Positions 14,857 through 50,360 of a stretch of DNA of 64,000 nucleotides are shown in pieces. The notes beneath the pieces were generated by a model. It did no database searches. It was not told the DNA's origin and worked only from the letters and a program-made list of their open reading frames with translations. Source of the stretch: Mustelus asterias (lineage: Eukaryota); NCBI RefSeq assembly GCF_964213995.1, contig NW_027590192.1, positions 434,001-498,000 on the forward strand. The letters are read 5' to 3'. Position numbers and translations under genes: made by a program. Position 1 is the first letter of the stretch, and each line of letters opens with the position of its first letter.

Positions 14857-15529
14857 GGTGCAGGTTTCCTTGCCTCACTCTTGGGTGGACAATCAGTTGA
14901 AACTTCGTCCACACACAGGACAAGATTACAGTCTCTACCCGCTGTGAATGGTGTGATATTTATTCAGACTGTGTAACTGGTTAAAGCTCTTTAGTCAGTG
15001 CATTGGAACACTCTCACTCAAGTGTGGCAGTGTGTTGATGCTTTTTCACTCACACTGACATTTCAAATCTTTTCAAATCGACAGACTGGACAATCATTTC
15101 TCCTTCTGGATTCAAAGTCCGATGATATTGAGGTCCCAAGGAACACGATTCTGTCACGCCTAGACGTGACGTTTGAGATTTCAGTCTGTGATTCCTCTTT
15201 CAATATCCTGAAAATGAGTTTCCAAAAGTCATCAGTGTCAGTACAGGATAGAAATTCAGAACAATTTCTATGGAACATTCTTTCCTCTCTCATTCCCCAA
15301 AAGCTGTAAATCTCCATCCCACACACTCTCTCCCCATTCTCAGCAGGTCTGGCAGCACCTGGATGGAGAGAAAAGAACTGATGTTTCAGAGCTTTGACAA
15401 AGGGTCATTTAGACAAGAAACATCAGCTCTTTTCTCTCCTTACAGATGCTGCCAGACCTGCTGAGATTTTCCAGCATTTTCTCCCTTGGCTTCAGACGCC
15501 AGCATCCGCAGTAATTTGCTTTTATAAGG

Positions 15530-19557: not shown

Positions 19558-19724
19558 ATAAGAGTTTTAACAATACCAGGTTAAAGTCCAACAGGTTTAT
19601 TTGGTAGCAAACACCATTAGCTACCATTAGGTGTTTGCTACCAAATAAACCTGTTGGACTTTAACCTGGTGTTGTTAAAACTCTTACTGTGTTCACCCCA
19701 GTCCAACGCCGGCATCTCCACATC
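19558..19724. mobile_element. Foldback Penelope-like terminal insertion with 13-bp target-site duplication
   Basis: ~57-bp inverted arms 19559-19615 / 19630-19686; agaactgaaccca at 19545-19557 and 19725-19737. Confidence 0.85.
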
Positions 19725-23062: not shown

Positions 23063-24489
23063 TTTGAGGGTGAATTCACCATCCACAGCCATGTATTTTG
23101 AATCCTGGTTCTGAAATATTCTCTCTGGGTTTAAGGCTTCCTAGCGTCAGACACACATTTAGATCTTACCACCAAACACCAATTCATATCCTCATCCGTG
23201 TCCCAGATTTAAATGTGGTTGTCCAAACTAGAAAACATATATAATTTGACTCTTTTTAAACCTGATTCACCACACCCTGCCACACTAACTACAAGAGATT
23301 GTGTTTGGGACCAGTTGTTCCGTTAAAGTCTGGGTTGTTCTCAATGGTGACAGTTTTAACCTCCATAACCTGTCCTAACCCTTCTGCCCTCCAGGGGGCT
23401 CTGTTTTTCTGATGGTGACATTCCCTGTTGACCCAGTCAGCCCTTGAATTGTTTGTGAATCCAGTCACATGTCGGTTAGACTGGATCAGGGCGGCAGATT
23501 TCCTTCCTTGAAGGGAATTAGAGAACCAGATGTGTTTTTACAACAATTAATTCATGCTCATCAATATTTTTATTGAAACGTGGTGGGATTCAAACCCAGG
23601 TCCCAAAATCATTATAATAAATAGAGAAAATGCTGGATAAACTCAGCAGGTTGGTTCTTTTCAGAACTCCAGCATCTGCTGGATTTTGCTTTACCTCCAA
23701 ATCATTCTCCTGGATTACTCCTGCTCTGGCTCTAATTCCAGTCAGCTCAGACAACAAAAACAGGTTTCACAAAATCACAAACATTTAAAAAAGGAGGTAG
23801 ACAAAAGGCAGGTAACTATAGGCTGGTTAGCTTAACTTCTGTAGGAGGGAAAATGCTTGGATCTATCATCAGGGAAAAAATAGCGAGACATCTGGATATA
23901 AATTGTCCCATTGGTAAGACGCAGCATGGGTTCATGAAGGGCAGGTCATGTTTGACTAATTTGGTGGAATTATTTGAGAACATTACATGTGCAGTGGACA
24001 ATGGGGAACCTGTGGATGTGGTGTATCTGGATTTCCAGAAGGCATTTGACAAGGTGCCGCACCAAAGACTGCTGCATAAGATAAAGGTGCACAGTGTTAC
24101 GGGTAATGTATTAGCATGGATAGAGAATTGGTTAACTAACAGAAAGCAAAGAGTGGGGGTAAATGGGTGTTTTTCTGGTTGGCGATCAGTGACTAGTGGT
24201 GTGCCTCAGGGATCAGTGTTGGGACCGCAATTGTTTACGATTTACATCGATGATTTGGAGTTGGGGACCAAGTGTAGTGTGTCAAAATTCGCAGATGACA
24301 CTAAGAGCAAAGTGTGCAGAGGACGCTGAAAGTCTGCAAAGGGATATAGATAATCTAAGTGAGTGAGCGAGGGTCTGGCAGATGGAGTACAATGTTGGTA
24401 AATGTGAGGTCATCCATTTTGGTAGGAATAACAGCAAAATTGACTATTATTTAAATGGGAAAAAATTGCAGTGTGCTACTGTGCAGAGG

Positions 24490-24626
24490 CCAAGCTGATT
24501 GGAGGAGGGAAAGCAATTCCTCCTCCAAGACTTGATCTCATTTGCATCTTAGCCAAAAGGCCGAGATACTGCTTTTAAAAATTGCTTCATATGAAACATA
24601 TGAAGCTTCAATGTAACCTAATGACC
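24490..24626 (-). mobile_element. Internal fragment of the U2-snRNA-related element
   Basis: Reverse complement contains tctcggccttttggctaagat (U2 5' stem-loop I) and aligns with 49377-49513. Confidence 0.8.
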
Positions 24627-24633
24627 TCAAACA

Positions 24634-25342
24634 AACCTCTGCAAGACGTGCCGGATCATTGACACGGATGCCATCATCTCACGTGAGAACACCATCTACC
24701 AGGTACACGGTACCTACTCTTGCAACTCGGCCAACGTTGTCTACCTGATACGCTGCAGGAAAGGATGTCCCGAGGCATGGTACATTGGGGAAACCATGCA
24801 GACACTACGACAACGGATGAATGAACACCGCTCGACAATCACCAGGCAAGACTGTTCTCTTCCTGTGGGGGAGCACTTCAGCAGTCACGGGCATTCAGCC
24901 TTGGATCTTCAGGTAAGCGTTCTCCAAGGCGGCCTTCACGACACACGACAGCGCAGTCGCTGAGCAGAAACTGATAGCCAAGTTCCGCACACATGAGGAC
25001 GGCCGAAACCGGGATGTTGGATTTATGTCACATCATCAGTAACCCCCACAGCTTGCCTCCTGGACTTGTAGAATCTCACTAGCTGTTCTGTCTGGAGACA
25101 ATACACATCTCTTTAACCCGTGTTTACTGTTCCCTCCACCCACATTGTCTGTACCTTTAAGACCTGGCTGGTTGGAGGATTCGCATTCTAATCAGTATTC
25201 TGCAACTTGATTCTGTCTGTTTGCACTGTTTGAGAGCACATTTCCACTCCATCTGACAAAGGAGCAGTGCTCCGAAAGCTTATGGTATTTGCTACCAAAT
25301 AAACCTGTTGGACTTTAACCTGGTGTTGTGAGACTTCTTACG
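24634..25342 (+). mobile_element. Penelope-like element 3' part: GIY-YIG endonuclease plus terminal region
   Basis: Manual translation NLCKTCRII...NVVYLIRCRKGCPEAWYIGETMQTLRQRMNEHRSTI...VGEHF; degenerate hammerhead core 25253-25277. Confidence 0.9.
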
Positions 25343-47999: not shown

Positions 48000-48724
48000 A
48001 CAGATGTTGGTGACAGGAACAAATTTTAGTCTGTCTGAAGCTCCATCTTCAGTCACACAAATCCCCCGCTCTGATTGGCTGGAAGACCTCAGGCCTTCCG
48101 GTCCTCCAACATTTTTCATTGGCCAGAGCTGGTGAGGGGCAGTGAATCAAAAGCGCGCATGTGCGGATTTTGGGGGAATGCGCATGTGCGGGTGTGGGGC
48201 GGGGCCCGGGACAAGGCCGGCGCACTGACCATTGTCTGTCCCGGTCTTCCAGCCTTTCCCATTGGACAACAGCTCAGCGCGGCTGGAGGACAAAGTCCCG
48301 CCCACCCTCACGTGGAGCCCCGCCCCTCATTGTTCTTCTGCAGGGCTTGACCAATGGGACCTCTGGAGGACCGGAGGGACTCTGGTCCTCCAGCCAATCA
48401 CAGCTCCTCATTGTCTGAATGCGGAAGTTGGACAATGAGCTTGTTCAGCTGCTCATTCCTGTCCAGCAAAGCTGCTGCTGCTTCTCTCTGAATGAAGATT
48501 GAGCTTCAGACAGCATGCGCAGTGTCATTGCTGTCCTTGGCGCTTGTTTGTCCCGGAGAAGCGGAGTCAGCGTTAGGCGGTGGCTGGGAGGATTTGGAAA
48601 CACTTTGTGGATCCGCAAACCCTTCAGAATCATTGTCAGCTCCCTGGTTTGCAGCTGCGGGGCTTCTCCCTCCCTCCCTCCCGGGAACAGGCCCAGGTTA
48701 ACGGCCCCATCCTGGCTCAGCCAC
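48000..48724. promoter_or_regulatory. CpG-island bidirectional promoter candidate for ZNF-5/ZNF-6
   Basis: gcgcatgtgcg twice, GC boxes, several CCAAT boxes, gcggaagt ETS-like motif; lies between divergent genes. Confidence 0.65.
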
Positions 48725-48725
48725 C

Positions 48726-48958
48726 GTCTTTTACCAGGACCTCCTCACTGTCTGGAACAAGGTCGCCTCGCGACGCAGCTCTCCCCCGTCAGGAGTAGCA
48801 GCTCTCGTGCGAGAGCCGCTGCTCAGGAATCCGCTCCTCCAGCCGTATGACTTCAGGTGGCTGGCGGAGAGGAGGGCTGTGGACGCCGGGGTGACCTGAA
48901 TTGGGGACGTGCTCGATGGCGGAGGGGCGGGCTGGATGAGTCCCCGTGTGCTGGCTGA
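48726..48958 (+). mobile_element. Tx1/L1-clade non-LTR ORF2 internal fragment
   Basis: Manual translation VFYQDLLTVWNKV...REPLLRNP...AGVT*IGDVLD...W resembles the post-RT region of Tx1 ORF2. Confidence 0.6.
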
Positions 48959-49129: not shown

Positions 49130-50360
49130 GTTCGATCAGTGAGTTTGCTGATGGTCCAAAAATTGGTGATGTGGTAAATAGCGAGGAGGAAAACCTTAGA
49201 TTACAGGATGATGTGGACGAGCAGGTTCGGTGGGCAGAATAGTGGCAAATGTAATTTAACCCTGAAATGTCTGAGGTGATGCATTTTGGAAGGACTAACA
49301 AGGCAAAGGAACTCGGCCTTTTGGCTGAGATCGGGTGTAGTGTGGTCGGCAGCCCATGGTCGGCCGCACTTGGTCGGGGTCATTGGGTTGCGCTGGGGCT
49401 TCATGTGTTTCATATGAAGCAATTTTTAAAAGCGTCATCTCGGCCTTTTGGCTGAGGTGCAGATGGGTTCAAGTCTTGGAGGAGGAGCCTCCCCCTTCTC
49501 CAATCAGCTTGGCTCATGTGGATCGGGCCCGGGACAGGGTGGTTTGGTCGCTCGCCCTGTCTTGTCGGCCTGGATCTGGGGTGTCTCAACTTGTTGGGAC
49601 TCTGAATTGGATTTGATTTGATTGAATTGGAAAAGTATTAAAAAAAAGGAACAGATAATGAACAATAGGACGCCAGGAAGTACAGAAGACCAGAGGGACC
49701 TTGGGGTGCATGTCCATTGGACCCCGAAGACAGCAGGACAGATTGATGAACTGGTTAAGAAGGGATATGGGATACTTGTCTTTTTTAGCCAAGGCATCAA
49801 ATATTTCAGCAGGCAGGTTATGATTGAGTGTATAAAATGCTGGAGTACTGTTTGCAGTTCGGGTCGCCACACTTTAGGAAGGATGTGATTGCACTGGAGA
49901 AGGTGCAGAGGAGATTCACCAGGATGTTGCCTGGGCTGGAACGTGTCAGTCATGAAGAGAGGCTGGTTAGGCTCGAATTGGTCTCCCTAAAGCAGAGAAG
50001 GCTGAGGGGGGGGCCTGATTGAGATGTACAAAAATATGATCCCTCAGTCCACTGACCTTTAGTAGCTGGGTCAATATCCAGGGACATAGATTTAAGTGAG
50101 GGGCAGGAAATTTAGAGGGGATTTGAGGGAAAAGATTTTCACCCAGAGGGTGGTGGGAATCTGGAACTCACTGCCTGAAAGGGTGAGAGAGGTGGGAACG
50201 CTCAACATTAAGAAGCATTTAGATAAGTACTTGAAGTGCCATAACATATAAGGCTGCTACTGACCAAGTGGTGAAAGGTGGGATTAGAACAGATTGGTGC
50301 TTGAGAGCTAGCACAAATACGATGGGTCAAAGGGCCTCTTGCTGTGCTTTAAAACTCTGA
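49130..50360 (+). mobile_element. Old CR1 hosting the U2-headed element
   Basis: FADGPK, RDLGV, EKVQRRFTRMLPG, ttcacccagagggtggtgggaatctggaactc. Confidence 0.85.
49312..49644 (+). mobile_element. U2-snRNA-headed short retroposed element (SINE-like), 333 bp
   Basis: Head ctcggccttttggctgagatcgggtgtagt ~ U2 nt 8-37; second U2-like copy 49438-49474; gattt repeats then A tail; aaaggaa duplicated at 49305-49311 and 49645-49651. Confidence 0.85.

Follow-up and report, generated by a model that had tools for sequence, protein, structure and literature searches.

The window, that is, the whole stretch of 64,000 nucleotides analysed from Mustelus asterias contig NW_027590192.1, carries an insert of 333 bp at 49312-49644 within a repeat that reads as a reverse-transcriptase remnant and that we take to be CR1. 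As summarized in Table 1, AAAGGAA flanks the insert at both ends, and this bore out the 7-bp duplication and A tail described in an earlier, sequence-only reading of this DNA; on inspection, a run of eight A's (49640-49647) overlaps the right repeat. That reading had also assigned the head of the insert to U2 snRNA nt ~8-37. The start at nt 8 stood but the end did not, as the head runs to nt 39; an A>G change at nt 38 of the window copy accounts for the shorter estimate. While the window copy lacks U2 nt 1-7, unedited copies match the U2 gene of the host genome at 39/39 positions. The second, interrupted U2 5′ copy proposed further downstream proved genuine, since other copies match U2 nt 4-27 there at 23/24 positions, followed by a short insertion and a few more U2 bases. 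The Rfam scan of the window gave no U2 call, and the call on locus L026 scored 48 bits against a cut-off of 46. A perfect octamer, ATGCAAAT, presumably the Oct-1 site of snRNA enhancers, lies at element nt ~152-159 (window 49457-49464, edited in the window copy) and was found in 84/92 sampled copies; the exact octamer is absent from both U2 upstream flanks examined, and its occurrence in the element may be a structural coincidence.

Table 1. Features of the insert, of related sequences in the window and of related loci elsewhere in the genome (two dots, window positions; L numbers, loci)
Feature	Position	Strand	Remark
Left target-site duplication	49305..49311	+	7 bp, or 8 bp including the next C
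U2 head, nt 8-39, 5′-truncated by 7 nt	49312..49343	+	Four A>G changes, at 49327, 49333, 49334 and 49342
Subfamily-A loop/hairpin segment	49344..49365	+	Motif with 578 genomic matches
Fold-back arm, degenerate inverted copy of the U2 head	49366..49393	+	Predicted to pair with the head; head and arm carry the highest A>G load
Near-perfect hairpin	49398..49420	+	Predicted fold
A-T5-A4 linker	49421..49432	+	In other copies, aligned by the Rfam U2 model to the Sm-site position; no G after the U-run
Second interrupted U2 5′ copy, putative start of second monomer	49436..49474	+	Octamer changed by A>G in the window copy
Hairpin module 1	49476..49515	+	Possible duplicate of module 2, weak (9/500 shuffles)
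Hairpin module 2	49521..49576	+	Homologous to the older U2-derived family, with compensatory changes
Small hairpin	49583..49600	+	Traced via the older family to U2 stem-loop IIb
3′ end: GATTT-type repeats, AAAGTAT motif common with the LINE 3′ end, short A run	49604..49647	+	
Right target-site duplication	49645..49651	+	
Fragment of another subfamily, both ends cut	24489..24634	-	Between remnants that we take to be Penelope-like and CR1-like
Older U2-derived family, examples	L327-L356, e.g. L329:1500-1745; L072:8821-9010		
Overwritten U2 units	L067:1973-2179, L069:2158-2364, L068:2980-3167 and others		

The sequence-only reading had interpreted the insert as a member of a family and not a one-off U2 pseudogene, an interpretation that would fall if only two copies existed or if copies had no 5′ junction, tail or target-site duplications (TSDs) in common. 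A 33-nt 3′ motif returned 2,400 exact matches in the 3.68-Gb genome, and a motif of the window copy's own subfamily (subfamily A) returned 578, the reversed-pattern control being 0 in each case. Several subfamilies are present, the 5′ junction is fixed within each, and tail and TSDs are common to the copies. These results indicated that the element forms a true family. The element is ~340 bp long and non-coding, and full copies begin at U2 nt 1, the head of subfamily A comprising U2 nt 1-39. Among 102 copies sampled on C1 (80 loci, taken as they follow one another in the genome from the 3′-motif matches, with two left out for overlap), the 5′ start fell at U2 nt 1-5 in 42 and at nt 6-20 in 33. 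Within a sample of 90 of the 578 subfamily-A copies, 70 begin within U2 nt 1-10. Duplications of 9-19 bp were found in 36/90, many copies having none so long (the 3′ end was recognisable in 76, and 5 tail-adjacent ones were left aside). The mean divergence of these 90 copies from the column majority is 1.8%, or 1.2% with A>G changes left out, and the family is therefore young.

Target sites were inspected in the 36 subfamily-A copies with duplications, a sample that overlaps with the LINE-end sample described below. A-G-Y precedes the cut in 6/36 versus 4.5% (p 0.005), and A at -3 and T at -6 were not significant; the likeness of dispersed target sites to the U2 site is modest and loose. Most copies end at the A run; one dispersed copy (L081) continues past it into U2 38-58. 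CCGGC 5′ extensions occurred in 3 dispersed copies, near chance. At four loci (L138, L143, L117 and L137), copies lie in or beside another copy in the opposite orientation, and the fold-back arm, read on its reverse strand, is similar to the U2 target site.

Rfam located U2 arrays on C24, with units of 1,833 bp and 8,035 bp; a second U2 type, with a 448-bp unit, lies on C21. It had been claimed that the element lives in U2 genes. Copies do lie in these genes at the Keno site, but they are few: the element tail followed by U2 nt 38+ was found in exact form at 4 places genome-wide, with two more in variant letters, versus 2,400 3′ ends. At five loci a copy stands behind at least 230 nt of U2 upstream flank, and at four of them U2 nt 38+ also follows the tail of a copy. 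The arrangement that the sequence-only reading had envisaged for master copies, with both an upstream U2 flank and nt 38+, is present at these four loci, but none of the long-flank copies is of the window's subfamily; two exact patterns (4 and 8 places) brought up no member of subfamily A with a full U2 flank upstream, those with a long flank being of other subfamilies. On C21 the upstream flank is followed by U2 2-39, the body, the A run, U2 38-185 and the next flank, and the 250 nt upstream differ from an intact U2 unit by 3 mismatches. On C24 an identical 250-nt flank (0 mismatches to the intact unit) is followed by a copy, a truncated LINE, U2 38-55, a second copy and U2 38-191, with a spacing of 1,827 versus the 1,833-bp unit. 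The C24 copy carries deletions, and the C21 copy differs in its first base and at further positions of its own, so that it is doubtful whether either still acts as a source. Similar in-gene pieces on C14, C1 and C8 may be copied read-through pieces of the array. In a search with two U2 upstream flanks, three independent dispersed insertions (L240, L244 and L245/246) were found to start with the final bases of the C21-type flank (up to 13 nt), and among these L244 is a subfamily-A copy with a 7-nt extension.

Two further features of the C24 arrays were observed. At 44.81-44.94 Mb (L075-L077), an 8-kb tandem unit, homogenised over more than a dozen repeats, combines one intact U2 gene with a Keno-type LINE that is broken and with a U2 3′ remnant. 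In about eight units of the 1,833-bp array, the LINE target, from nt 38 onward, is overwritten by repeats of upstream U2 bases (Table 1), and these units might be scars of failed insertion or target-immune pseudogenes.

The U2 arrays of C24 and C21 also carry a 5.2-kb LINE with two ORFs. Domain search returned RBD_ZCCHC3 and zf-CCHC in ORF1 and Exo_endo_phos, RVT_1 and zf-RVT in ORF2, the RVT_1 score falling below the cut-off in this broken copy. In the array copies of both chromosomal loci the LINE tail is followed by U2 nt 38+, and the LINE 5′ end bears U2 nt 1-33/35. Its domains and target, rather than a tree, point to a Keno-type LINE; comparison of its reverse transcriptase returned RT proteins without family names. 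One partial hit, at 69%, lay in Scyliorhinus canicula, which together with the repeat types makes a shark the likely host. The LINE 3′ motif has 215 exact matches, many of them dispersed. Among the first 30 of these ends, site-like sequence follows at most one outside the arrays, and an element lies within 1.5 kb of eight (expected 0.24% each, P 7e-15). At L179, L188, L192 and L204, a single target sequence recurs between LINE and element and links them in a chain, the order at L188 being element-TSD-LINE-TSD-element. The earlier proposal of dispersal by a LINE gained from these data, since the common site, the neighbouring ends and the four chained loci make the Keno-type LINE very likely the partner, and LINE-driven copying of the element appears highly probable. 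A comparison of the element's 3′ tail with the 3′ end of the LINE, also proposed in that reading, revealed a short common motif (17/2,000 shuffles against the LINE 3′ UTR, A-tail included) but no likeness beyond it, and the best BLAST match between element body and LINE had an E value of 0.62. An origin of the element from the LINE 5′ UTR was rejected, the alignments being weak (52, 26, 99 and 1,210 of 2,000 shuffles).

Stem-loops had been noticed in the insert, and the predicted folds are more stable than those of shuffled sequences. For a lightly edited copy the predicted energy is -148.8 kcal/mol (z -9.6, 0/100 shuffles as good), with the head predicted to pair with a downstream arm, and the window copy folds with a z of -5.7 (0/100 shuffles as good). 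In sequence, the arm corresponds to U2 nt 9-40 in inverted orientation, altered by several A>G changes. As a guess, this fold-back might mask the branch-point pairing region of U2 and so limit harm to splicing.

An older U2-derived family of ~235 bp, with 773 exact motif matches, was studied at 30 loci, of which 29 were usable. It is built of U2 nt 1-34, a hairpin in place of the middle, a degenerate U2 3′ part and an A tail. Its 3′ part aligns to U2 nt 44-169 (0/1,000 shuffles), and 9/9 of its loci run through Rfam were scored as U2, two over the cut-off and two only at E > 0.3. Its fold is no better than shuffles (z -1.1), and most of its copies gave no clear target duplication. The 3′ third of the element aligns to this family (0/1,000 shuffles). 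When the final 85 nt of the element were aligned straight to U2, no significant match emerged (56/1,000); its 3′ body is traced to U2 through the older family. In the hairpins common to both families, 96.5% of cells are paired and 56 double changes were counted versus 21.6 in shuffled data, but these amount to ~3-4 events between two families; the number of pairs with a double change (6 versus 4.2, 71/500) was not significant. In the simplest reading, the element would consist of two U2 5′ halves, both degenerate, joined as a dimer, with the second half coming from the older family.

Relative to the subfamily majority, the window copy carries 28 changes, 24 of which are A>G, affecting 24 of 72 A's (P ~4e-32 at the T>C rate). 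A first count of 84 A>G versus 12 T>C was discarded as biased, the query itself being edited. In the 90 subfamily-A copies, chosen by a pattern tolerating A or G, A>G was found at 185/6,262 positions versus 70/8,587 for T>C (29.5 versus 8.2 per 1,000), and when rare variants only were considered, the counts were 110/5,906 versus 47/8,497 (odds ratio 3.4, p 1.6e-13). The load is uneven, 35/90 copies having no A>G and 4/90 having 11-20. By 5′ neighbour, the A>G rate was 7.5% for U, 3.1% for A, 2.5% for C and 1.3% for G. The ADAR1 neighbour order given in the accessible part of PMC11120146 is the same, except that here A falls below U. Along the element, the load declines from the head hairpin (60 per 1,000) towards the 3′ end (6 per 1,000), and A>G in or beside predicted helices (170/5,394) exceeds that away from them (15/868) by less than twofold. 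The U2 head itself bears A>G changes, and head and arm therefore lay on one RNA. The sets of edited sites overlap only in part between copies. ADAR editing of element RNA before reverse transcription is the best fit to this signature and is, to our judgement, very probable. Three points thus go beyond the sequence-only reading: the A>G hyper-editing of the window copy, the fold-back arm pairing with the U2 head, and the U2 descent of the 3′ body.

The insert is one of at least 2,400 copies of a non-autonomous retroposon derived from U2, which, as we conclude with a probability of roughly 0.7, is transcribed from U2 promoters by the few copies inside U2 genes, copied by a U2-targeting Keno-type LINE and marked by ADAR edits fixed in DNA. 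Copies observed in U2 genes run from the upstream flank through U2 1-39, the body and the A run to U2 38+, a layout that would allow a Pol II start at U2 +1 to yield a single RNA with head and body. In the predicted fold, the head turns back onto the inverted arm and the remainder forms more hairpins. ADAR would edit this RNA lightly, and heavily in ~4% of copies, as suggested by the sequence signature; LINE protein would then prime at the A run and insert the copy mostly at loosely matching sites. Rare insertion back into U2 nt 37/38 would renew promoter-bearing sources. The position of the in-gene copies and the 5′ ends of dispersed ones make Pol II transcription from U2 promoters probable, and the internal T runs (T4, T5-6) argue against Pol III transcription.

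The same element and LINE could also operate with source RNA drawn mostly from dispersed copies through host promoters or introns, in which case the in-U2 copies would be by-products of targeting and the hyper-edited copies would stem from RNA paired with an inverted neighbour. The failure of the two exact patterns to find an in-gene source for subfamily A fits this scheme, as does the presence of more than one copy, some inverted, at 19/80 sampled C1 loci. It would also account for edits that span the whole length of the window copy, including some A's at positions predicted to be single-stranded, and 5′ extensions from flanking DNA are reported for SINEU-2 in the accessible text of PMC4494074. 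Against these observations, the 5′ ends pile up at U2 nt 1-10, where read-through RNA would need a processing step and Rfam detects no ribozyme in the element, and the common 5′ extensions derive from U2 upstream flank (two flanks searched). We regard a dispersed source as unlikely and favour transcription from within U2 genes.

DNA mutation bias, reverse-transcriptase error or assembly error as the cause of the A>G excess is much less probable still. Across 101 copies of all subfamilies, counted in columns where the majority letter reached 70% or more, the excess is weak (A>G 16.2 versus T>C 13.6 per 1,000), and a few A/G sites are common enough to be source-gene variants, one being found in 27/89 copies. 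Such causes are hard to reconcile with 24 changed A's in a single copy, with the same letters in eight segmental duplicates, or with the absence of an excess in the window flanks and in LINE copies (A>G 6.4 versus T>C 9.2 per 1,000; 29/30 used, one diverged copy omitted). Least probable are independent chimeric retrocopies, in which the LINE would start on a headless RNA and change over to U2 snRNA as template anew for every copy. Upstream of L085, L086, L244 and L245, additional U2 pieces that differ in length imply that such switching occurs, but the junction fixed within each subfamily largely refutes this origin, and the complementarity of arm to head, the A>G edits in the head and a body without a significant LINE match beyond the short 3′ motif speak against it as well. 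A retrozyme or circular-RNA origin of the tandems was rejected, as target duplications stand between their units and the tandems bring together different subfamilies and pieces of the LINE.

SINEU-1, -2 and -3 were described in crocodilians and found nowhere else according to the accessible text of Kojima 2015 (PMC4494074), which ties them to Tx1-Mar and a Mariner target, leaves their transcription open and argues from T runs against Pol III. The accessible parts of PMC5381603, PMC4758252 and PMC7245038 name no snRNA-headed SINE outside crocodilians. With a U2 head (39/39), a length of ~340 bp, an A tail, target duplications and a true family, the element is a SINEU variant, set beside SINEU-1/-2/-3 by description and not by sequence. 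As far as that 2015 account goes, the likeness extends to a length under 500 bp, an oligo-T stretch inside the element, U2 5′ pieces added repeatedly, tandem copies that sandwich a target duplication and, probably, a Tx1-clade partner with a U2 head, and the older family in the shark genome resembles SINEU-3 as a U2 gene with a replaced middle. In contrast to SINEU, the very likely partner of the shark element targets U2 itself and copies lie at the U2 gene position, and the fold-back arm and editing are absent from the text of PMC4494074 that was accessible.

The site-specific LINEs offer a second comparison. Keno, of the Tx1 clade, and Utopia use the same site in U2. Keno targets U2 from nt 38 with an APE-type endonuclease (PMC6136364, accessible part), and the same site and enzyme type are given for Keno in the available text of the Utopia paper (PMC4640811), where the word "non-autonomous" does not occur. 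The shark LINE likewise has an APE-type endonuclease and a 3′ flank from nt 38. Unlike the autonomous elements of those partial texts, the element is non-coding and mostly dispersed. R2 SIDE and R2/R1 SIDE, as far as the accessible text of PMC3414825 describes them, are similarly short and non-autonomous, occupy a LINE-targeted multicopy RNA gene and rely on co-transcription. SIDEs, however, are there LINE deletion products with a 5′ ribozyme, while the element is built from U2 pieces, gave no Rfam ribozyme hit and is spread genome-wide; residence at the LINE's site holds for a handful of copies only, and the comparisons with the LINE body and 5′ UTR (BLAST E 0.62; 26-1,210 of 2,000 shuffles) gave no indication of a deletion product.

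The head of a classical SINE (7SL, tRNA or 5S) was not found either, as Rfam on three loci gave only U2, and T4 and T5-6 runs lie inside the element. Alu is also a dimer-like element made from degenerate copies of one small-RNA gene, with an older monomer precursor, and is an ADAR substrate. It differs in its internal Pol III promoter, its use of L1 and its type of head.

The literature searched, with thin coverage of subscription papers and with Repbase, Dfam and SINEBase outside the comparison, held no description of this family and no report of ADAR-edited genomic SINE copies. At somewhat short of even odds, we tentatively view the element as an uncatalogued snRNA-derived retroposon lineage, likely of sharks, that returns to U2 genes by riding Keno, conceals its U2 head within the fold-back hairpin and owes most of its evolution to ADAR edits made in the germline. 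In the youngest subfamily, A>G changes outnumber every other class (185/513), and RNA editing therefore appears as a heritable mutagen and a marker of germline ADAR; if this is true, past A-to-I editing in the germline can be read from the genome as from a fossil record. Taken together, the older family and the younger one would trace the path from a spliceosomal RNA gene to a retroposon, SINEU-type elements would extend past crocodilians, and a Keno-type LINE would gain a non-autonomous passenger. The puzzle of U1/U2 promoters that lie upstream of snRNA-headed SINEs, raised in the accessible text of Kojima 2015 (PMC4494074), would receive an answer with coordinates, namely, sources inside U2 arrays that are renewed by a site-specific LINE.

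Elsewhere in the window, an ORF2-like fragment at 48724-48900, presumably of Tx1 type, gave no BLAST match to the Keno-type LINE, and long inverted repeats at 15354-15450, 19564-19683 and 1299-1387 drew miRNA hits from Rfam, all sub-threshold. A second copy of the internal part, claimed at 24490-24626, is present, but it spans 146 bp (90%) on the minus strand (Table 1). This fragment has at least 11 identical copies, mostly on small contigs, and the flanks are common to 6/6 of those checked, which marks them as segmental duplicates; the 49-kb insertion has 8 near-identical occurrences with the same flanks, also mostly on small contigs. Identical matches of the two insertions are not independent, because both sit in segmentally duplicated DNA. 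The window thus lies in recently duplicated DNA.
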